From positions 11,426-75,425 of the forward strand of contig CAZQGN010000013.1 in the NCBI GenBank assembly GCA_964592865.1: a DNA stretch of 64,000 nt, written 5' to 3'. A program made the position numbers and the translations under genes. Of this stretch, positions 33,810 through 64,000 are shown one piece after another. Under the pieces are notes generated by a model that had not been told where the DNA came from, searched no databases, and saw only the letters and a program-made list of their open reading frames with translations. The first letter of the stretch is position 1, and the number at the start of each line of letters is the position of its first letter. Source of the DNA: an uncultured Chloracidobacterium sp. GTDB lineage: Bacteria > Acidobacteriota > Blastocatellia > Pyrinomonadales > Pyrinomonadaceae.

Positions 33810-34976
33810 TTATCTATTTCCCTTCGCTTGATTGTGCGTCTTGCACAACATCTCGCAGTTCTCGATGCTTGATGCTCCGCCGTTGCTCCAGGCTGTTACG
33901 TGGTCGGCTTCCATTTCGGCGAGCTTCCAAATTCTGGTTATGTTTGAATCGTGACCGATCGCGCAGAATGAGCAGTTTGAAACGCCTGCGGCCTCGGCAG
34001 CTTGGGTTTGTTTTGTGTAAACCGTGGTTTTGGTCGCGGTGTCGAAGAGCCTGATGTCGAGAAGCTGCGGCTTTTGCGAACCGTCGAGGATATATTCGAA
34101 CACACCTTTCTTATTGTTTACATAAGGGTCGGCATAGAGCTTTTTGACCATTTCCGATATCTTTTTCGGATCGTATGAATTCTTATGATACTTCTCGTAA
34201 AAACTGCCCCACTCGAGTCCTTTCATTTCTTTTGGGACGTCGATGAATACGCTTGAGACCCAATCGATCACGGTGTTGAAGTAATTCTTCAATTCGGTGA
34301 TATTCGTGTCGTTGCGATGGGCGCTCATGTATTTGCCGATGTCGCCTTTGCTGACCCAATCGAGAGCACGTTCGAGAAACTCCTGTCGGTTCGCACTGCC
34401 CTTGATGTAAGCGCTCCACTTTTGAATGTTGGCGTTTTGGCTGTTGCTGAATTCGGTTTTAGCAAGCGTAACAAAAGGCCCTGAATAGATAGCGTTCAAC
34501 AGTTCTTGGGCGTTAAGCGGAATGCCCGCGATGTTTATGGTTTCGAACCATTGCTTGATCTCGGTCTCGGTGCCTTCGCACTCGTAGATGAGGAGCTTTG
34601 AGTTTTGAATAAACTCGCGTTGGTCGGCGGGCAAGCTGTCGAAGTATTTCGGATTGCTGTTTTCCATTATCGGGAACTTGCCTGTCACAAAGCGGCCGAT
34701 ACTGGTGATACGCTGTTGGCCGTCGAGCACTTCGAATTTGTCTTCGCCGACCTTGTTAAAGTAAATAAGCCCGAGCGGATAGCCTTTGAGAAGCGAACGA
34801 ATTACATCTTGCTCACGCTTGCCGCCGCCGTCTGCATAGATAAAGTTGCGTTGGTATTCGGGCTGGATCGTCAGCTTTCCGCCAAGGCCAAAAAGCCCTT
34901 TGCCCTCATACGAGTTGTACGTGAACCCGTCGCAAATATCGGCGATTGTGATGTCGGTGTTAAGTGTGGTAATCAC
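33810..34976 (-). CDS. DUF262 (ParB/Srx-like NTPase/nuclease domain) - HNH endonuclease fusion
   Basis: DUF262 signatures IQPEYQRNF and [13 protein letters not shown]-terminal HNH: CSFC...[32 protein letters not shown]. The GTG start overlaps the MTase stop (GTGA). Confidence 0.85.
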
Positions 34977-36127
34977 TTCTTATCTCCCTTTCGTCGATGT
35001 CGGATTACAATGCGCTTGTACATGCGTGAACGGTTTACAATCGGACCGTTCCAAAGCAACTCTCGTCCCGAACTACTGACCTCCACGGACTTAACTGCAC
35101 CTAAATCGTCGCCATGTTTGCCACCTTCGAAACATCCGATAATTTCAAACTGGTCGGGGTTGTACTTGTCGAGGAAAGTTATTGGAACGCCCATCATGCC
35201 GTCATAATCGCTAGGAATCTCCTTATATGTAGAAACCTCAATTGCATCGAAGTTATCGTATCGATCGTAAGTTTGTTTTCCCTTGAGACTCTTACTGAAA
35301 CGCAGGTTATCGGCCATCGTCATCAGCGGCAGTTCCTGATGTCTTCGGCCATGATCGAGATTCGTAAACCACATGATGCTGCCCATGCTGAAATACTTTA
35401 TTCCATTTACGACCTTCTTGCGGGATTCGGTCTTTATGTCGTAATCGTCTTGCACCTGGAACCATTTCGTTCCACCATTGTCAGCACCGAGCCACATCTT
35501 ATCTTCCTTGATGAGTGGAAAAATCTCCTTGTAAGTGATCGCGTTTTGGCTCCCAATTATAAGAAACTTCTTCTTGTATTCGACAAGTTGCGCGACATAT
35601 TCACGAAAAAGCGAGAACGGTGGATTTGTTACTACGATGTCGGCTTGTTTTAGTAGTTCGATGCATTCGGGTGTGCGGAAATCGCCGCCTTGTGTTAGCG
35701 GTTTGCGCTTGTGCGGGTTTTGCTCGAAGAAAAGCTTAACGTCCTCGATGTCCGTCATGCCGTCTTGGTTGATATCCGTAACTTCCTCGATCTCGAACGC
35801 GACGGCCTTTGGCCTTTCACGCTTGCCGTTTCCTTCGTCGTATTCCAGCAGACTAAATTGATGTCCCGCAATAGGCGAACCGTCATAACTCGCAGTGACA
35901 AGTTTCTTGAGTCCCAACTTGTTGAAATTAGCCGCAAAGTATTTGAAAAAATTACTTTCAAAAGGATCGTCGCAGTTGCAATAAACGACCTTGTCGCGAA
36001 AAGTGTCGGGATCGTATTCGAGATAAGCCTCGATCTCTTTTCGGATATCGTCGTATTGCGTGTAAAACTCGTCTTTCTTCGCGACCTTAGCAGCGTTTAG
36101 ATCGGTGTTTTGGGAAGTAGTCGGCAT
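34973..36127 (-). CDS. N6-adenine DNA methyltransferase, EcoRI-methylase-like family
   Basis: N-terminal KDEFYTQ...[18 protein letters not shown] block and catalytic [10 protein letters not shown] (NPPF). Confidence 0.85.
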
Positions 36128-55897: not shown

Positions 55898-58405
55898 TTA
55901 TTGCAGCTGCTGCAGCTCGGCGACATCGTCAAATCGCCGCATTGGCTGGCGGATCATCGATTCGTTCTTGAGGTAAGAACACAGGTCCGAAAAATTCATC
56001 GGGGCGGCGAACAGGTAGCCCTGCCCGTATTCACAGCCGAGCGATCGCAGCGTGTTGAGTTGCGTTTCGGTCTCGATCCCTTCGGCGACGACCTGCAGGT
56101 CAAGGGTTTTTGCCAGCGTTACGATCGCACGAACGATCTCGTCGTTTCCGCCCTTGTCGTTGATCATATTGACGAACGAGCGGTCGATCTTTAGCGTGGT
56201 GATGGGGAGTTTCATCAGGTAGCTGAGATTTGAGTATCCCGTACCGAAATCATCGATGTTGATGTCGATCCCCGCGTCCCTCATCTGTTTGAGCATCTCT
56301 ATCGCCCTTGCCTGATGTTCGACAAAGACGCTTTCCGTTATCTCGAATTTAAGCAAATGCGGTGAGAATGAGTTTTCTTCGAGGATGCGCTCGATGTTGC
56401 GCACGAGCGATACCTGGGCAAATTGTTTGCACGAAAGATTGACGCTGAGTTTCGGCTTTTGGCCCTCGGGCATCACGTCCTGGATCGTACGGATCTCACG
56501 GCACGAGATCTGAAGAACATATTCGCAGAGGCGGTCGATCATTCCGATCTCCTCCGCGACGGGAATGAACTTGCTCGGCGAAATATTACCGAGTTCCGGA
56601 TGATTCCATCGGGCAAGCGATTCAAAACCCTCGATCTGGTCAGTTTCTAGCGAGTATATCGGCTGATAGACGACCGATAGTTCGGAACGTTCGATCGCGC
56701 GTCTCAGGTCGGTCTCGATCCGCAGAGTCTCGCGCGCGGCCTTAAACATTTTTTCGTCAAAAACCTCGTGGCGGGCCTTTCCGGCCCGTTTGGCCTGATA
56801 CATCGCGGTATCGGCGTCGCGCATTATGTCCTCGGACGTGCGGTGGCCCGACGAAGCGTGAAGAATGCCGATGCTGGCGGAACTGTAAACCTCGTTGCCG
56901 TTCAGTTCAAAGGGGATCCCGAATTTTGCCTGGATACGTTCGGCGATACGCGTGACCTCTTCGTCAATGTGGGTGCCCTCGACGAGGATAGTAAACTCGT
57001 CACCGCCGAGGCGAGCCACGAGGTCCGACGGCCGGAGACACTCGCGGAGCCTTTCGGAAATACCCATCAGCAGCATGTCGCCAGCCAGATGTCCGAGACT
57101 GTCATTTACGTATTTGAAGCGGTCGAGGTCAATAAACAGGATGCTGACCCGATAGTCTGGCGACAATTGGCGACGCTCAAGGGCCGATGTCAGACGAGCC
57201 ATGAACAGCGGGCGGTTCGGCAGGCCGGTCAGGGCGTCGTGGGTCGCTTCGTGCTGGAGTTTCTCTTCGGCGACCTTTTTGTGGGTGATGTCCTGGATCT
57301 GGAAGATCAGTCTCTGGTTCTCGACATTTCCGTCGCCGGCAGCGGAGACACTCCACGATGCCCACACGACGTCGCCGTTCTTATGAAAATAGCGGTGTTC
57401 CAACTGACAGCTCGCGATCTTGCCGGAGATCAGTTCGTGGAGTTTTACGAGCGTCGGGCCAAGGTCGTCCGGAACGATCATCGACTGAAAGTCCCGGGCC
57501 AAAAACTCCTCTTCCGAAAAACCGAGTATCTCGGTCAGGGCCCGGTTGACCTTGAGCCACGATCCGGTCGAACTGACGAGAGCAATGCCGATCGGGGCAT
57601 AGTTGAACGCACTTCGAAACCGCTCTTCGGACTCGCGCAGGGCGTCCGACTGAGCCTCCATCACCTTGGCGTACTGTTCCGCCTGTTCCGCCTGTTGGAT
57701 CGAGATCTCGACGTTCTTCATATACATCCTGTAGGAAAGATATACAAAGACCATCACCGGAAATGTAGCGAAGATAATACCGACGCCGATCGTGTCGGCG
57801 AGCTGGATCAGGATGCCTGCCCCGGCCGCGCCCACAAAGTACGAGAAAAATGTCCAAACGTATTTGGACTTCCAGGTTTCCCAGACCGGCAGGCCGCTCT
57901 TCAAGGCGTCATAGACGGTCGCGATCGCTGTATTGGCGACAAATTGTGCCAGGGCAATGACCGACAGTGCGATCACAAAATTTGCACGGTTATTCGTGTG
58001 TCCGTGGAAGATCTCCTCCTGATAAAGCGAAAGATAATTGAGTGTCACCACGACGAGCGATGTCGATACTGCCATCGTCGCGGCGTTGAAAAAGACGGTC
58101 AGCTTTTTGTTGCAAAATCGCCACGAGGAGCAAAAAGCCTCAAGCGCGGCGAGAATTATCGCAAATTCGCCTCCGTAAAGCAGCAATGTCAGGAATATGA
58201 ATGTGTCCGAGACTGCAATGTGCGATTTGAATCGCGGAATGGGGATCGTGATCCGCGACCCGAGCACGATCGTCAGGATAGCGAGCAGCATCAGGTAACC
58301 GTCCACCCGCTCGGTCGGCATCGTAAGACCCGCGGCGGCCAGGCAAGCCCCTCCGGCGAAGATGACGATCGAAATGTACCAGGCTGTAAGTCTCTTGCTG
58401 TTCAT
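55898..58405 (-). CDS. Membrane-anchored PAS-GGDEF-EAL c-di-GMP turnover protein
   Basis: About 6 TM helices at the N-terminus, a PAS segment, RLGGDEF, an EAL domain (ESLARW, DDFGTGYS, KID) and QGY.F. Confidence 0.85.
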   Translation of the reverse strand: MNSKRLTAWYISIVIFAGGACLAAAGLTMPTERVDGYLMLLAILTIVLGSRITIPIPRFKSHIAVSDTFIFLTLLLYGGEFAIILAALEAFCSSWRFCNKKLTVFFNAATMAVSTSLVVVTLNYLSLYQEEIFHGHTNNRANFVIALSVIALAQFVANTAIATVYDALKSGLPVWETWKSKYVWTFFSYFVGAAGAGILIQLADTIGVGIIFATFPVMVFVYLSYRMYMKNVEISIQQAEQAEQYAKVMEAQSDALRESEERFRSAFNYAPIGIALVSSTGSWLKVNRALTEILGFSEEEFLARDFQSMIVPDDLGPTLVKLHELISGKIASCQLEHRYFHKNGDVVWASWSVSAAGDGNVENQRLIFQIQDITHKKVAEEKLQHEATHDALTGLPNRPLFMARLTSALERRQLSPDYRVSILFIDLDRFKYVNDSLGHLAGDMLLMGISERLRECLRPSDLVARLGGDEFTILVEGTHIDEEVTRIAERIQAKFGIPFELNGNEVYSSASIGILHASSGHRTSEDIMRDADTAMYQAKRAGKARHEVFDEKMFKAARETLRIETDLRRAIERSELSVVYQPIYSLETDQIEGFESLARWNHPELGNISPSKFIPVAEEIGMIDRLCEYVLQISCREIRTIQDVMPEGQKPKLSVNLSCKQFAQVSLVRNIERILEENSFSPHLLKFEITESVFVEHQARAIEMLKQMRDAGIDINIDDFGTGYSNLSYLMKLPITTLKIDRSFVNMINDKGGNDEIVRAIVTLAKTLDLQVVAEGIETETQLNTLRSLGCEYGQGYLFAAPMNFSDLCSYLKNESMIRQPMRRFDDVAELQQLQ

Positions 58406-58510: not shown

Positions 58511-58546
58511 AAAAGGCAAAAGCCGGGCCCGTCATTCGAGCCCAGC
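58511..58546 (-). terminator. Rho-independent terminator after GNAT copy 1
   Basis: On the minus-strand RNA: GCUGGGCUC-gaaugac-GGGCCCGGC (9-bp stem with two G:U pairs), followed by UUUUGCCUUUU. Confidence 0.6.
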
Positions 58547-58586
58547 TTATTATGCCTTAATTAAACATTGTTGTCCACTGTTATTT

Positions 58587-59492
58587 TTAGACGAACAACG
58601 TCACGCATTTGTCAGTAGCGCGGTATCCGGCCTTCTGAAAGCTCTTGTGAGCTCCCGCAAAATTGACGTTGCTTAGAAGGCAGATATGTTCTGCACGGCT
58701 GAGCAGTTCGAGCGTCAAGGCCGCGAGACATTTTGAGCCGATCCCGTTCCCACGAAACTCGGGTGCGACCCAGACGCCTTCGAGATAAATGACGTCAGGC
58801 GTCTCAGCAATAATATCTGCCTTGAATGCCAGTTTGCCATCGATCTTGACGCTGAATACACGTCCCATTTCGATGCGGCGCAGGACACGCTTGAGAAAAC
58901 CCTCGCGATCCCGAGCCATCGGATCAACACCGCATTCGATGAACGCGACCTCAGCCTGGGCTTCAGCGAGTTCGACGAGGTCGGCAGCGTTAGCTGTCTC
59001 GACGTTCCATTCGCATTTTTGGACGGCGAACGGAAATGCGGTCTCAAAGAGGAGTTCTTCACAGCGAAGTCGCGGGGCGGCGGCTGTCGTTGTGTAGCTG
59101 CTCCAGAATCGTTCGGCAGCGTCGCCGGACGACATTATCAGGTGGATCGGCCGGGCCGAGGTGCGGGCGGTAAATGCCAGTGCCTCGATGGCCTTTTCAG
59201 TACGGGCCTCGAACAGTGTCGAGTGTCCGATGAGTCCAACTCCCTCCAGTCTTCCTGCTTCATTCCTATAACCGTAGAATGTTCCTCGGTTGAGTTCGGT
59301 ATCGAAACCGTTGTCATGAATGAAACTCGTCATTACGACCGTGTGGACCGGGCGTTCCGCCAGGAACGCTAACGTCTCGGTACGCGATGATTCGTCGAGC
59401 ATAAAGACCCGCGAGAGGTCGGGCACAATGCCCAAGCTCCTGGTGTGCGGTACTGCGACTGTCGCAGTGCTCATTTGTGATTGGCGTAACAT
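58587..59492 (-). CDS. Two-domain GNAT-family N-acetyltransferase (copy 1)
   Basis: C-terminal GNAT core with the acetyl-CoA motif FRGNGIGSK. An N-terminal ~130-aa domain precedes it. Paralogue of 62405-63313. Confidence 0.75.
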   Translation of the reverse strand: MLRQSQMSTATVAVPHTRSLGIVPDLSRVFMLDESSRTETLAFLAERPVHTVVMTSFIHDNGFDTELNRGTFYGYRNEAGRLEGVGLIGHSTLFEARTEKAIEALAFTARTSARPIHLIMSSGDAAERFWSSYTTTAAAPRLRCEELLFETAFPFAVQKCEWNVETANAADLVELAEAQAEVAFIECGVDPMARDREGFLKRVLRRIEMGRVFSVKIDGKLAFKADIIAETPDVIYLEGVWVAPEFRGNGIGSKCLAALTLELLSRAEHICLLSNVNFAGAHKSFQKAGYRATDKCVTLFV

Positions 59493-59539
59493 TTTGGTTC
59501 TCCGTATTTTGATCGTGTAATTGTTTCAGTTGGCTGCGA

Positions 59540-62149
59540 CTACATCGAAGGCGTTGGATCGCCAAGTAATACGCTGTCACCTATCAATACGCCATCTCCT
59601 ACGAGAACACCGTCGCCGACGAGCACGCCGTCACCGATCAGAACACCGTCGCCGACGAGTACGCCGTCACCGACCAGAACACCGTCGCCGACTAGCACGC
59701 CGTCACCGACCAGAACACCGTCGCCGACTAGCACGCCGTCACCGACTAGCACGCCGTCACCGACCAGAACACCGTACGACAACCAGATCGAACCGGCACC
59801 GAGGGCACCGCCGTTACTCGTCGTAACATTGCGGTTTACGCCTAGCCCTGCAGTAAAGAACGCGCCCGTGTTGAGCGAAAAGTTGCCGTTTGAGAACCGA
59901 ACACCATCGCTGATGATGTTTTCACGTTTGTAAGCGGCCTGGAATTTTGAAACAAGGTCCGCGCCGGTAACCATTGTGTGGTTGCCGGTGATCATCTGAG
60001 CCCACTGGAAAGTATTGCCGCCGATCGTTGTCGAGGTCGTCGGCATGGTCCAGCCGGCCGGGACAGTCGACGAGCCGTTTGCCGCCGTCTGGAAGTCGAT
60101 ATCCGTGCGGAGCGAGCGAGCCAGCCGAACCGCACCTTCGATATTCAATGCACCCGCACCCTGTTCAAAGGTATTGGCACCTGAGACCGGGCGGGCCGAA
60201 TACTGCATGATCATTTTGATCATTCCCGGCGTGAGGTTCGGATTGACCTGCAGCAAGAGTGCCGCCGCACCGGCTACGACCGGAGCCGACATCGACGTGC
60301 CGCTCATGTACATCATCGAATCATTGTCATTCGTCAGATCGAGTGACAGCGACGGGTTGAGCAATGCCATTCGATTGCTCGGAGCCTTGTAGGACACGAG
60401 GCGGTTACCCGGAGCAACGATGTCGGGCTTGATGATGTTGTCAAACACTTTCCAGCCGGTTGATGTGGTCAGGAAGCTGCGTGTCGGGCCCCGCGAGCTG
60501 AAGCTCGAGATCGTATCGTCAGCAGTCGTCGTTGTTCCCATCGAATTGCTCGATCCGACCGTCAACGCATACGGGCTGATGCCGGGCGAGTGAATACGGC
60601 CATAGGTCTTGGCACCGGTTGCGGTCTTTCCGAGGTTACCCGCGGCAACGACCACGACGATCCCTGCCTGGACCAACTCCTTGACCTTGACGCAGATCGG
60701 ATCGTTGCGATACGAATCGACCGCCGTCGTGCCGAGGCTGAGGTTTGCCACTTTGATGTTGTACTGGACGCGATTCTGAAGGATCCAGTTCAGTCCGTTG
60801 AGGAGCCAGGACGAACTGCCTTCGCCAAGATCGTTAAGTACCTTGACGCTGACGATCTTGGAGTTTCTCGCGACGCCGCGATACGCACCGCTTTGTTTAT
60901 TTGAATCGCCCGCAGCAAGTCCGGCAACGTGCGAACCGTGGCCGTAGCCGTCGGTCGTCGCCGTCAGGGTGCCGCTCGTAAAGTTGACATTAGCGACGAG
61001 ACGCGAGGTGCCACCGCTGGACTTGTAACCGTTATGGTTTGAGGCGATGCCCGAATCGACAATAGCGATACCGATATCGGAACCGTCGAGATTGTAAGCA
61101 GCACGTCCATTGAGTGCCGGCTGTGAGCGGACCAGGTCCGCACCGATCGACTCTTCGACATGGCCGGTCACTGTTGTCGGGCGATCAGGCGAAATGAAGT
61201 TGATGAGGCCGCTTTTCGAAAGCGAATCGAGTGCTGAAAGCGGCAAATTGACGACGATCGTCTCGGTATTGCCGATGCGATCGGTCACACGGGCCTCGCC
61301 GGACTTGAGCAATGAGCGAAGTGCGGCATTGTCGGCGTCCTTGGCCTGGATGATGACATCGACGCGGGTCTTGCCGGTCGGGTCATTCGCCATCATTTCG
61401 CGAAGTTCCGATGAGATATTGTCACCGGCATAACCGTCGCCACTTACAACACTGGCTTCCGTATTGTTCGCTTGGCCCGAAATGATGATGCCCTCGAGTG
61501 CGATCGCCTGAAAAACACCGGCGAACGCTTCGGATCGCTCGATCTTTTCAGCATAGCTCACGCGGGTCGACCCGCCGATGATCGCAAGTTTGCCCGAGGT
61601 GATAGCTCCGAGCAACTGTTCGCCGACCGCCTGCGACTCAAGCAGGTTGGCAATCTCGTTAACGTAAAGGACAGTCTGCTTTCCGGAAGCGGACACCTCA
61701 TTAACGATCGTCCCGATCAGGTCTGTGACCTCCGCATCGGACTTGGCGTTCGAATACAACGCTGCGACCTCAAGTTTGACCACAGAAATGCCCTTCAGAC
61801 TGTCAGGCACGTTCCCGGCGGCAATGCGGCGGGCAACCTGCTCAACAACGGCATCCTGATTCTCGCCCGTGTTATCAACGATAACCGGCTGGCGAAGTCC
61901 ACCTTCAGCTAACACTTTGACGAGACGCGAAGTCTCGCTTTCAAAGTTCAGGTTCTCTCGCAGTCTTCCATTACGGCCAAGCTGCGTAAGATCGGTGGTA
62001 TATTTCGCTGTCGCCGATGCATTGTTGACCGTCTGCGGCGTAAGTGCGGCAAAGGCCGGCACCGCGTTGGTCACCAAGATCGACAACATAAGCACCAGCG
62101 AAACCGCCGTCCTTATGGTCAATATTTTGGTCTTAGACAAACTCATCAT
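59540..62149 (-). CDS. Exported S8 (subtilisin-like) serine peptidase with an N-terminal degenerate ClpB-like AAA+ module and a C-terminal (GDGVLV)12 array
   Basis: Signal peptide ...AVPAFA|A. Catalytic triad contexts IAIVDSGI, GHGSHVAG and GTSMSAPVVAG. See findings for the other modules. Confidence 0.85.
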   Translation of the reverse strand: MMSLSKTKILTIRTAVSLVLMLSILVTNAVPAFAALTPQTVNNASATAKYTTDLTQLGRNGRLRENLNFESETSRLVKVLAEGGLRQPVIVDNTGENQDAVVEQVARRIAAGNVPDSLKGISVVKLEVAALYSNAKSDAEVTDLIGTIVNEVSASGKQTVLYVNEIANLLESQAVGEQLLGAITSGKLAIIGGSTRVSYAEKIERSEAFAGVFQAIALEGIIISGQANNTEASVVSGDGYAGDNISSELREMMANDPTGKTRVDVIIQAKDADNAALRSLLKSGEARVTDRIGNTETIVVNLPLSALDSLSKSGLINFISPDRPTTVTGHVEESIGADLVRSQPALNGRAAYNLDGSDIGIAIVDSGIASNHNGYKSSGGTSRLVANVNFTSGTLTATTDGYGHGSHVAGLAAGDSNKQSGAYRGVARNSKIVSVKVLNDLGEGSSSWLLNGLNWILQNRVQYNIKVANLSLGTTAVDSYRNDPICVKVKELVQAGIVVVVAAGNLGKTATGAKTYGRIHSPGISPYALTVGSSNSMGTTTTADDTISSFSSRGPTRSFLTTSTGWKVFDNIIKPDIVAPGNRLVSYKAPSNRMALLNPSLSLDLTNDNDSMMYMSGTSMSAPVVAGAAALLLQVNPNLTPGMIKMIMQYSARPVSGANTFEQGAGALNIEGAVRLARSLRTDIDFQTAANGSSTVPAGWTMPTTSTTIGGNTFQWAQMITGNHTMVTGADLVSKFQAAYKRENIISDGVRFSNGNFSLNTGAFFTAGLGVNRNVTTSNGGALGAGSIWLSYGVLVGDGVLVGDGVLVGDGVLVGDGVLVGDGVLVGDGVLVGDGVLIGDGVLVGDGVLVGDGVLIGDSVLLGDPTPSM
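59558..59773 (-). repeat. 12 tandem 18-bp units encoding G-V-L-[VI]-G-D
   Basis: Counted from the translation (GVLVGD x7, GVLIGD, GVLVGD x2, GVLIGD, SVLLGD). The units differ at synonymous positions. Confidence 0.95.
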
Positions 62150-62287
62150 TTTTGCTCCTCAAAAACGCGTGTCCTTTTTCTCGAACACCAAAGAAATATG
62201 GCAAATGTCGCCGCCCTTTAATATCAATGCGTGTGCCACAACCGTAAGTCTATTAAATTCACTAGTTAGCATATTACGGTGATGTGA

Positions 62288-62320
62288 ATTCGGTCATTCT
62301 GGTTTTCAGATTGACCGAAT
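62288..62320. promoter_or_regulatory. Inverted repeat ATTCGGTCA-N15-TGACCGAAT upstream of the S8 gene
   Basis: Perfect 9-bp arms. A further TGACCGATGACCGG lies at 62334-62347. Confidence 0.3.
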
Positions 62321-62345
62321 GGCAATGTCAATCTGACCGATGACC

Positions 62346-62375
62346 GGAAAAAAAGAGGGGGCCGTTAGGCCCCCG
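62346..62375 (-). terminator. Rho-independent terminator after GNAT copy 2
   Basis: Minus-strand stem GGGGGCC-uaac-GGCCCCC followed by UCUUUUUUU. Confidence 0.8.
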
Positions 62376-62404
62376 TTTTCAGATCCGGTAATGGTGATCA
62401 ACGA

Positions 62405-63313
62405 TCAGACAAAAAGCGTCACGCATTCGCCGGTCCGGTCAAAGCCGGCTTTTTCGTAGCTGCGATGGGCCGCATCAAAATCGACGTTGCTGAGCAGACA
62501 GATATTGGCGACACGGCCGAGCAGCTCGATCGACAGTTTGCCGAGGCACCGCGAGCCGACGCCCTGTCCGCGATGATCCGGATGGACATAAATGCCCTCG
62601 AGATAGATCGTCTGGTCCGTCTCGGCAATGATATCGGCCTTAAAGATCAGCTTTCCATCCTGGTAAACCGTGAAGATGCGGCCTTGATCGATCCTGCGGG
62701 CGACCCGCTTTAAGAAACCGTCACGGTCACGCTGCATCGGGTCGACGCCGCATTCTATGAAGGCGATCTCGGCCTGTGCGGCGGCGACCTGTTCGAGCTG
62801 GGCCATATTGGCGTTGTCGATATGAAATTCACACACCGGCACTGCCATCGGCAGTCTGGCTTCAAATAACGCCTCGACACAGGTCAGGCGCGGCTCCGAA
62901 GTCCCTCCGGTCAAATATTGATGAAATCGTTGGGCATCGCTGCCGTTCGACATTATTAGGTGTATCGGCGTAGAACTTCGGCGTGCCGCGATCGCCAGAG
63001 CGGTAAGGGCATCTTCGGTTCGGGCCTCGACTAGTGTCGAGTGTCCGATCAGGGCGATACCCTCAAGTTCGCCGGCAGCGTTTCGGTAGCCGAAAAACTC
63101 GCCTCGATGCAACTCGCTGACCATGCCGTTGTCGAGGATAAAGCTCGTCATCACAACGGTTTGCACCGGCCGCACCGCCAGGAACGACAGTGCTTCGCGG
63201 CGGTCCGCTTCAGTCAGGCAACCGACTCGCCCGGATGCCGGTACTTCAACGAGTCGCCTGATCGAGGCCGAGTTGTCAGTGTGCGGTCTAATTTCCGCTA
63301 TATTCTGCAACAT
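62405..63313 (-). CDS. Two-domain GNAT-family N-acetyltransferase (copy 2)
   Basis: Collinear with copy 1 along its whole length, including the shared C-terminus CVTLFV. Acetyl-CoA motif HRGQGVGSR. Confidence 0.75.
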   Translation of the reverse strand: MLQNIAEIRPHTDNSASIRRLVEVPASGRVGCLTEADRREALSFLAVRPVQTVVMTSFILDNGMVSELHRGEFFGYRNAAGELEGIALIGHSTLVEARTEDALTALAIAARRSSTPIHLIMSNGSDAQRFHQYLTGGTSEPRLTCVEALFEARLPMAVPVCEFHIDNANMAQLEQVAAAQAEIAFIECGVDPMQRDRDGFLKRVARRIDQGRIFTVYQDGKLIFKADIIAETDQTIYLEGIYVHPDHRGQGVGSRCLGKLSIELLGRVANICLLSNVDFDAAHRSYEKAGFDRTGECVTLFV

Positions 63314-63359
63314 TGTCTTGTCTCCTTACATTTGTCCCTATAATTATGTAATTCAACAA

Positions 63360-64000
63360 TTATTTCATTGCCGCGGTGTTGTCCCCGGTGATCTCGACCT
63401 TATTTGCCAGCGACGTTGTCACGTCCCCAACAAGCACGCCGTCACCAACCAGGACACCATCTCCGACCAAAACACCGTCGCCGACCAGAACGCCGTCACC
63501 GACGAGCACTCCGTCGCCGACCAGGACGCCCGAGGCCATCATTACGGTTCCGCCGCCCATCGCCGTGCCGTTGCTCGTCAGCACATTCTTGAACATCGTG
63601 ATGCCCGTTCCAAACCAGGAATTGAGCGACGGGTTGTTCGAGGCGTCATAACTGACGCCATCCTCGAACCAGAAATAGTTGGCGTATGCCTGATGGTACT
63701 TGTCGGCAAGCGACTGGCCCTTGAGGTAGGTCGCGTTGGTGAGAATGCCCTGGGCCCACGGGAATGTAGTTCCCGCGATCGTGCTGGTCGCGACCGGAAA
63801 TGCCTGGCCGGACTGCAATAGGCTGGTACCCTGAGCGTAGTCGTTAAAGTCAGTATCGAACTTGTACGTCCGCCCGATCTTGATCGCACCGTCGATGTTC
63901 AACTGCCCGGCGCCCTGCTCCAGCATATTTACACCGTTCAGCGGTTGAGCCGAATATTCGAGGATCATCTTGACCATCGTCGGGGTCAGCTTCGGATTCA
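63360..64000 (-). CDS. S8-peptidase paralogue, C-terminal part only (5' end beyond the window), with a (GDGVLV)6 array
   Basis: Alignable to the C-terminal ~200 aa of 59540-62149 (EQGAG.LNI.GA, TF.WAQ, LTSNG). The frame is open to the window edge. Confidence 0.8.
   Translation of the reverse strand, partial: NPKLTPTMVKMILEYSAQPLNGVNMLEQGAGQLNIDGAIKIGRTYKFDTDFNDYAQGTSLLQSGQAFPVATSTIAGTTFPWAQGILTNATYLKGQSLADKYHQAYANYFWFEDGVSYDASNNPSLNSWFGTGITMFKNVLTSNGTAMGGGTVMMASGVLVGDGVLVGDGVLVGDGVLVGDGVLVGDGVLVGDVTTSLANKVEITGDNTAAMK
63423..63530 (-). repeat. 6 tandem 18-bp units encoding GVLVGD
   Basis: Counted from the translation ASGVLVGD(GVLVGD)5. Confidence 0.95.

Follow-up and report, generated by a model that had tools for sequence, protein, structure and literature searches.

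A conserved gene pair for a putative exported subtilase with a Clp-like domain and a tandem-GNAT acyltransferase in Acidobacteriota

We analysed a stretch of 64,000 nucleotides (nt) from an uncultured Chloracidobacterium sp. (GenBank assembly GCA_964592865.1, contig CAZQGN010000013.1, positions 11,426 to 75,425), hereafter the window. It carries two versions of a two-gene unit, each consisting of a gene for a subtilase-type S8 peptidase followed by a gene for an acyltransferase of the GNAT superfamily. An earlier note, made from the letters alone, had described two minus-strand units of this kind, and the open reading frames (ORFs) and Pfam domains bear this arrangement out. We designate the unit with a complete peptidase gene A and the one whose peptidase gene runs to the window end B (Table 1). 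The two GNAT copies are similar from end to end (60% identity, 177/293, E 7e-129) and share the C-terminus CVTLFV, whereas the C-terminal regions of the peptidases, although collinear, are more diverged, with 54% identity overall and about 43% (68/158) outside the repeats. The hexapeptide copy numbers of 12 and 6 given in the note also held: S8-A has 11 G-V-L-[VI]-G-D units and one SVLLGD, and S8-B has six units.

By its signals, each unit is a two-gene operon: both genes have ribosome-binding sites, roughly 47 nt separate them, and the GNAT gene is followed by a terminator. A Shine-Dalgarno sequence (GGAG, AAGGAG or GAGGAG) precedes each gene of both units, the S8-to-GNAT gaps are 47 nt (unit A) and 46 nt (unit B), and a hairpin with a T-run was found at both places where a separate terminator had been proposed. 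The gene after GNAT-A encodes a membrane-bound PAS-GGDEF-EAL protein, referred to below as the sensor; about 175 nt and a strong hairpin lie between the two genes, in the window and in close relatives alike. The best promoter-like match of the region (58549-58577, minus strand; TGGACA, 17-nt spacer, CATAAT; 10/12) lies past the GNAT-A stop and directly before the terminator hairpin, which it abuts. It could be a chance match or a leader start for the sensor gene.

Table 1. Features of the two S8-GNAT units and the adjacent sensor gene, in window coordinates (aa, amino acids).
Feature	Position	Strand	Description or basis
GNAT-A	58587-59492	minus	ORF, 301 aa; predicted cytoplasmic tandem-GNAT acyltransferase
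S8-A	59540-62149	minus	ORF, 869 aa; predicted exported subtilase pre-pro-enzyme
S8-A signal peptide, residues 1-34	62048-62149	minus	read from translation; model helix 6-33
S8-A Clp NBD1-like AAA+ domain, residues 40-219	61493-62032	minus	NCBIfam and PDB chain matches
S8-A propeptide-like alpha/beta unit, residues ~245-330	61160-61417	minus	model secondary structure
S8-A subtilase catalytic domain, residues 356-666	60152-61084	minus	Pfam, PDB match, motifs
S8-A hexapeptide array, residues 793-864	59558-59773	minus	12 GVLVGD-type units, then C-terminal GDPTPSM
GNAT-B	62405-63313	minus	ORF, 302 aa; 60% identity to GNAT-A
S8-B, 3' part only	63360-64000, open to window end	minus	212 aa visible
S8-B hexapeptide array	63423-63530	minus	6 GVLVGD units, then ...ITGDNTAAMK
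Unit A terminator-like hairpin	58520-58548	minus	12-bp stem, then T-rich tail
Unit B terminator-like hairpin	62357-62374	minus	seven G-C pairs, then TCTTTTTTT
Membrane PAS-GGDEF-EAL protein (sensor), 835 aa	55898-58405	minus	conserved gene after GNAT-A
Sensor membrane domain, residues 13-247	57665-58369	minus	multi-pass; recurs beside GNAT relatives

The earlier note had made its proposal of a functional link depend on the two genes being neighbours in other genomes, and this is what we found. The GNAT family comprised 2840 matches at 90% clustering and 961 clusters at 50%, 82 of these with E <1e-30, and its named members all came from Acidobacteriota (Pyrinomonadaceae, 'Chloracidobacterium sp.' and Blastocatellia). 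We assembled a genome set of 79 species-representative loci, in which upstream counts were restricted to loci with at least 2.7 kb of upstream sequence. An S8 catalytic domain was encoded directly upstream of the GNAT gene and on the same strand in 71/71 of these, with a median gap of 34 nt, and 70 of the 71 upstream peptidases also had the Clp-like domain listed in Table 1. A second set of 80 metagenome loci, whose GNATs are 30-49% identical to GNAT-A, was collected with a five-sequence GNAT alignment, a 20-sequence alignment of the most distant GNATs being too diverse. With at least 1.5 kb of upstream sequence required, S8 was directly upstream in 42/47 distant loci, and the remaining five GNATs had no S8 upstream. 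The most distant type (L090) consists of an S8 peptidase with an fn3 domain, then the GNAT, then a PAS-GGDEF-EAL protein. A second GNAT subfamily of Pyrinomonadaceae, about 40% identical, is encoded at another locus, which is preceded by an AlkZ-related gene; it likewise follows an S8 gene, the product of which has 652-674 aa and a (GVLIGD)n tail, the Clp-like domain being absent. These comparisons show the pair to be an old, co-inherited module of Blastocatellia-type Acidobacteria. The note had known of no described S8+GNAT module, and our literature searches for such a module or for a Clp-like subtilase likewise gave nothing relevant.

The sensor gene is the second recurrent neighbour; neither it nor the Clp-like domain had been recognized in the earlier note. 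Its PAS, GGDEF and EAL domains all scored above the curated thresholds, and a GGDEF-EAL orthologue lies downstream of the GNAT in 66/68 genome loci. The N-terminal membrane domain, of about 240 residues, matched no Pfam family and showed only sub-threshold similarity to the S components of energy-coupling factor (ECF) transporters. Related N-termini occur in a hybrid histidine kinase encoded after the paralogous S8-GNAT pair (41% identity, E 1e-49) and in an HD-GYP-GAF protein encoded after GNATs without an S8 (22% identity, E 1e-8). The membrane domain is conserved, while the output varies between GGDEF-EAL, histidine kinase and HD-GYP. A census with a profile of the membrane domain covered 102 GNAT units with enough flanking sequence on both sides. 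All 68 units from genome loci had S8 upstream, and downstream there were 61 sensors, six further S8 units and one other gene. Among the 34 units from distant metagenome loci, 29 had S8 upstream, followed downstream by 16 sensors, 12 other genes and one further S8 unit; the five that lacked S8 all had the sensor downstream, so that none of the 102 units was without both partners. The median distance from the GNAT stop to the sensor start is 38 nt in the distant loci. A small lipoprotein, LptE-like by eye, or a protein of 250-310 aa follows the GNAT in some distant loci (L095, L096, L110, L112, L116, L119, L121, L122; L101, L102, L104-L106, L109); the latter protein has a J-domain-like start and, by eye, a PilZ-like C-terminus.

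Pairwise distances of the GNATs correlated with those of S8 (Spearman 0.54) more strongly than with those of the sensor (0.28-0.32) over 58 loci, while the two halves of the sensor gave 0.82 among themselves. The two most distant full-length S8 relatives (L080, L081) have the Clp-like domain and an irregular, degenerate tail and are not accompanied by a GNAT; the gene after the protease encodes GGDEF-EAL in one and is murJ in the other, which suggests that protease and sensor may have been neighbours before the GNAT joined. The functional link between S8 and GNAT that the earlier note had proposed gains comparative support from the widespread adjacency and the distance correlation, and we consider it very probable that the two form a functional unit.

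S8-A has the architecture of an exported subtilase precursor. As read from the translation, it starts with a Sec-type signal peptide (basic N-region, hydrophobic core, AFA|A), and the Asp, His, Asn and Ser motifs of the catalytic domain are intact (VDSG, HGSHVAG, NLSLG and GTSMSAP). The match to the S8 family was strong (PF00082, 159.8 bits against a cut-off of 21.8, E 1e-46), and a small C-domain lies between the catalytic domain and the repeat tail. The signal peptide is followed by a region (residues 40-219, about 180 residues) that is homologous to the large subdomain of the first nucleotide-binding domain (NBD1) of ClpB, ClpA and ClpV. It matched TIGR03346 with E 8e-23 and the ClpB/Hsp104 chains of the PDB with E 1e-18 to 1e-21 (2p65, 3e-21; 6dju, 4e-20). 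The nucleotide-binding motifs of this domain are degenerate. The ClpB Walker A motif GEPGVGKT, of the form GxxxxGK[ST], aligns to DNTGENQD with the lysine and threonine replaced, and the ClpB Walker B segment FIDELH, of the form hhhhDE, aligns to YVNEIA, in which DE has become NE. Walker A is degenerate in distant relatives too (GEAGLITT in P0158, TDSPAIRD in P0155), and the same degenerate domain was found in a complete S8-B orthologue of about 853 aa (L001) and in more distant relatives. Pfam did not detect the Clp-like domain of S8-A, and because of this the public names of these proteins are only 'S8 family serine peptidase' or 'AprX'. Residues ~245-330, which may be I9-like, align with the start of a Clp-less paralogue directly after the signal peptide of the latter. 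Since the Clp-less paralogue begins at the propeptide-like unit, the Clp-like domain is an insertion between signal peptide and propeptide. The full-length model of S8-A had a mean predicted local distance difference test (pLDDT) score of 63.7 and was therefore left out of the fold search.

The repeat tail shows the hexapeptide pattern of left-handed beta-helix domains, in which position i is aliphatic and position i+4 is small, and in S8-A it scored 40.4 bits against Pfam Hexapep, above the cut-off of 27. Repeat units with the same peptide differ by 3.1 (S8-A) or 4.2 (S8-B) of 18 nucleotides, and all of these differences are synonymous, which argues that the repeat is held by selection on the peptide and is not the product of recent slippage. 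The tails of 143 family members have a strict six-residue periodicity, with 4-15 units (median 10), and are followed by a conserved motif GD-x-T-x-x-M, often LGDNTACM. Because the units agree as peptides but vary at synonymous sites, we also considered the tail as a multi-copy precursor of released hexapeptides; basic residues were not clearly enriched before the units (7/85) and the spacers are themselves degenerate six-residue units, so that a structural beta-helix fits better. The tail does not serve as a predictor of a downstream GNAT, since 14 tailed S8 genes had no GNAT directly after them, most of these being extra paralogues within the same array. Many arrays contain such tail-bearing paralogues further upstream, with no GNAT attached to them: one to three of them precede the GNAT-linked S8 in L020, L025, L027, L029, L030, L036, L046, L050 and L055. 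They have about 700-730 aa, no Clp-like domain and 4-5 hexapeptide units, and they end in LGDNT[AST]CM[LV]PAP with its conserved cysteine.

Both GNAT copies scored above the cut-off for PF13508 and PF00583. The Acetyltransf_1/7 matches were confined to the C-terminal half, in GNAT-A a catalytic domain of residues ~170-301, and FR47-type signals were present. The acyl-coenzyme A (CoA) motif is intact, as RGNGIG in GNAT-A and RGQGVG in the other copy, and a signal peptide is absent. The model of GNAT-A was confident (pLDDT 90.4, predicted template modelling score 0.85) and has a tandem-GNAT fold, with near full-length Foldseek matches to 7pk0, 1sqh, 3iwg, 6wqc, 2wpw and 1ozp. By template modelling (TM) score the closest structures were Drosophila 1sqh (0.66) and bovine glycine N-acyltransferase (0.64-0.65), and by E-value they were 3iwg, VipF, which is a protein-acetylating tandem GNAT, MAB_4324, the clavulanate tandem GNAT, MshD and PamZ; a glucosamine N-acetyltransferase was also among the matches. 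The proposal of the earlier note would have been contradicted by a GNAT of well-established, unrelated substrate. None of the curated NCBI families searched came near its cut-off and none assigns a known substrate, so that a substrate could not be assigned to the enzyme. A natural head-to-tail fusion of two GNAT copies (P0241, 589 aa, from a 2250-base metagenome contig) hints at an enzyme that acts as a pair, and at the existence of tandem GNAT genes in other places.

The history of the two units departs from what the earlier note had supposed. In L001, from the same or a sister species, GNAT-A and S8-A are 97% and 96-98% identical to those of the window, and a complete S8-B directly follows malate dehydrogenase; the further copies suspected beyond the window are thus not seen there, this relative having no third unit. 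In L002, whose unit A is 92-95% identical, malate dehydrogenase directly precedes S8-A and unit B is absent. In the S8 tree, S8-B falls in an old clade separate from S8-A, a clade that supplies the only GNAT-linked S8 in L011, L018, L024, L033 and L055, and in L025 the B type lies upstream of the A type, as it does in the window. The absence of unit B from L002 and the old, separate clade of S8-B argue against a recent in-place tandem duplication. Comparison of the phylogenies, which had been suggested as a test of co-duplication, gave a divided answer: the distance correlation of 0.54 agrees with it, but the GNAT tree has a star-like shape in which the A/B split of the S8 tree is not recovered, so that co-duplication cannot be demonstrated topologically. 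The window seems to hold two adjacent versions of the cassette, both old, of which the downstream one alone abuts the sensor, and units appear to have been lost or exchanged in relatives. The part of S8-B before the repeats (window 63360-63998 against L001 5530-6168) is only about 63% identical between the two genomes, and 73% over 212 aa, whereas the S8-B repeat tail is 100% and GNAT-B about 95% identical. This part is a local hypervariable or recombined patch.

In another part of the window, positions 33810-36127 have a GC content of 0.47 against about 0.57 elsewhere and encode an EcoRI-type adenine methyltransferase (E 5e-133) and a GmrSD_N/HNH nuclease. This low-GC patch is probably an acquired restriction-modification or defence islet.

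The reading we prefer, at a probability of roughly 0.4, is that of an extracellular protease, a GNAT that N-acylates a small substrate in the cell, and a sensor that reads a related cue. The protease would work outside the cytoplasm, with the Clp-like domain serving, independently of ATP, as part of the pro-region or as a scaffold, and with the tail as a left-handed beta-helix for oligomerization or attachment. The substrate that the GNAT would N-acylate inside the cell would be a small amine, amino acid or peptide and not the protease. The N-acylated compound would be tied both to the products that the protease releases and to the cue sensed by the neighbouring membrane domain, and the three genes might in this way couple extracellular proteolysis to cyclic di-GMP (c-di-GMP) or kinase signalling. 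Three observations lead us to prefer a small substrate to the protease. Most fold neighbours of the GNAT act on small molecules; the GNAT, with a mean distance of 0.39 as opposed to 0.42, has diverged less than S8, and its relationships do not mirror the S8 clades; and either gene can be present where its partner is missing. The sub-threshold similarity of the membrane domain to ECF S components, which bind small ligands, points the same way. A more specific form of this proposal would be an undescribed acidobacterial pathway in which an exported subtilase with a secreted, ATP-independent relic of a Clp unfoldase domain makes or processes an extracellular cue, the tandem GNAT N-acylates this cue or a related metabolite, and a new ECF-S-component-like membrane domain, interchangeably joined to GGDEF-EAL, histidine-kinase and HD-GYP outputs, reads the ligand and sets a c-di-GMP or phosphorelay output; in all these particulars together we regard it as rather unlikely.

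Several observations weigh against the preferred reading. The relatives are all metagenome-assembled or metagenomic, and the loci represent a single phylum and, for the most part, a single class, so that some of the conservation reflects shared ancestry. Fold similarity leaves the GNAT substrate unfixed, with the protein-acetylating VipF among the matches. The module contains no transporter gene by which a product of proteolysis would reach the cytoplasmic enzyme. The tail of the S8-A monomer model, which we read as a beta-helix, had a pLDDT of only about 30. As to the sensor, a strong hairpin separates its gene from the GNAT in the window, its distance correlation with the GNAT is weak, and the downstream gene of 12/34 distant units is unrelated (for an LptE-like lipoprotein or a DnaJ-type protein).

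The alternative that survives best places the GNAT substrate in the protease itself: the precursor would be acylated or acetylated in the cytoplasm, on its pro-region or on lysines, before Sec export, and its folding, activation or attachment would be controlled thereby, in analogy to the activation of RTX proteins by acyltransferases of the HlyC type. We judge this unlikely, although the tight operon coupling, the joint retention of both genes after duplication, the closer distance correlation with S8 and the presence of VipF among the fold matches would all fit. The partner S8, moreover, almost always has a Gly/Asp-rich tail of beta-helix type, reminiscent of the repeats in RTX proteins; the acyltransferase that activates the latter has a GNAT fold (PMC8339906). 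Against it, there are S8 paralogues that share the tail and the C-terminal motif but lack a GNAT directly downstream, distant full-length S8 relatives have no GNAT at all, some GNATs have no S8 neighbour, and the GNAT does not follow the A and B clades of S8. The tail contains no lysine, and neither GNAT matches the HlyC family in Pfam or NCBIfam. Modification of Sec substrates before export is also not, to our knowledge, an established mechanism.

Clearly less probable still is a self-protective role, in which the GNAT would inactivate a toxic amine or peptide that is freed or activated by the protease outside and re-enters the cell. The presence of PamZ, which inactivates paenilamicin, among the structural matches would agree with such a role, and the combination of an exported peptidase with a cytoplasmic acetyltransferase may be likened to the logic of prodrug activation and resistance in the paenilamicin, colibactin and xenocoumacin systems. 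However, no genes for nonribosomal peptide synthetases, polyketide synthases or ribosomally synthesized and post-translationally modified peptides were found near any of the loci inspected, and the locus belongs to the syntenic core, where it lies between mdh (malate dehydrogenase) and murJ.

It is equally doubtful that the adjacency is inherited synteny without shared function, with unrelated targets for the GNAT and the protease. The loci are all from Acidobacteriota, and the wider region from mdh to GGDEF-EAL, PBP4 and MurJ is itself syntenic in the closest relatives, as this explanation would have it; the pair, however, is known from at least four different flanking contexts with GNAT identities down to 30%, the gaps are short, and both genes are kept together in the duplicated units. 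Membership in an anti-phage defence system (IetS/IteS) was rejected, since the matches were only to the generic S8 domain, the NCBIfam IteS score of S8-A (60.8) was far below the cut-off of 900, and the GNAT and the sensor had no PADLOC match.

Acidobacteria belong to the most abundant bacteria of soil, and very little is established about their physiology. The deeply conserved protease-acyltransferase pair points to an unstudied pathway that senses or processes the extracellular protein pool, and in many loci it adjoins a membrane sensor whose outputs can be exchanged. The unusual recruitment of an AAA+ unfoldase domain to the exported side after loss of its ATP site would bear on the reuse of pseudo-enzymes. 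All three proteins carry generic labels in databases, which miss both the Clp-like domain and the membrane domain. Taken singly, S8 peptidases, GNATs and GGDEF-EAL proteins are ordinary. What appears to be new, as far as our searches show, is the conserved S8-GNAT operon, the putatively exported, Clp-NBD1-like pseudo-ATPase domain in a subtilase precursor, and the unnamed membrane input domain that occurs with three predicted output types beside the GNAT.

Among solved structures, the best match to the catalytic region of S8-A was Tk-SP of Thermococcus kodakarensis (PDB 3afg, E 4e-39), one of the subtilases that have a propeptide and a C-terminal accessory domain, and like these S8-A has intact triad motifs and a propeptide-like unit before the catalytic domain. 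We know of no described subtilase with a Clp NBD1-like domain behind the signal peptide or with a perfect hexapeptide tail, and the literature search turned up none. Compared with ClpB, ClpA and Hsp104, the Clp-like domain of S8-A is predicted to be exported and comes without a middle domain, a second ATPase ring or an N-domain. The GNAT shares with the known tandem GNATs (7pk0/7pk1, 1sqh, MshD, VipF, PamZ and 3iwg) a degenerate N-terminal lobe and a catalytic C-terminal lobe, at a sequence identity of only 10-18%. With RTX proteins and HlyC the locus has in common that a gene for a cytoplasmic acyltransferase of GNAT fold adjoins a gene for a putatively exported Gly/Asp-rich repeat protein. 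HlyC enzymes lack CoA-binding elements and use acyl-acyl carrier protein (PMC8339906), whereas the GNAT keeps the RGxGxG motif. RTX proteins, furthermore, have nonapeptide repeats and type I secretion, in contrast to the hexapeptides and Sec signal peptide of the S8 peptidase. The last comparison is with LapG, a periplasmic cysteine protease, and LapD, the inner-membrane GGDEF-EAL receptor for c-di-GMP by which it is controlled. LapD receives its input through a periplasmic domain and HAMP and lacks the multi-pass domain of the sensor, and no acetyltransferase is involved; the likeness lies in the gene for an exported protease beside a gene for a membrane GGDEF-EAL protein.

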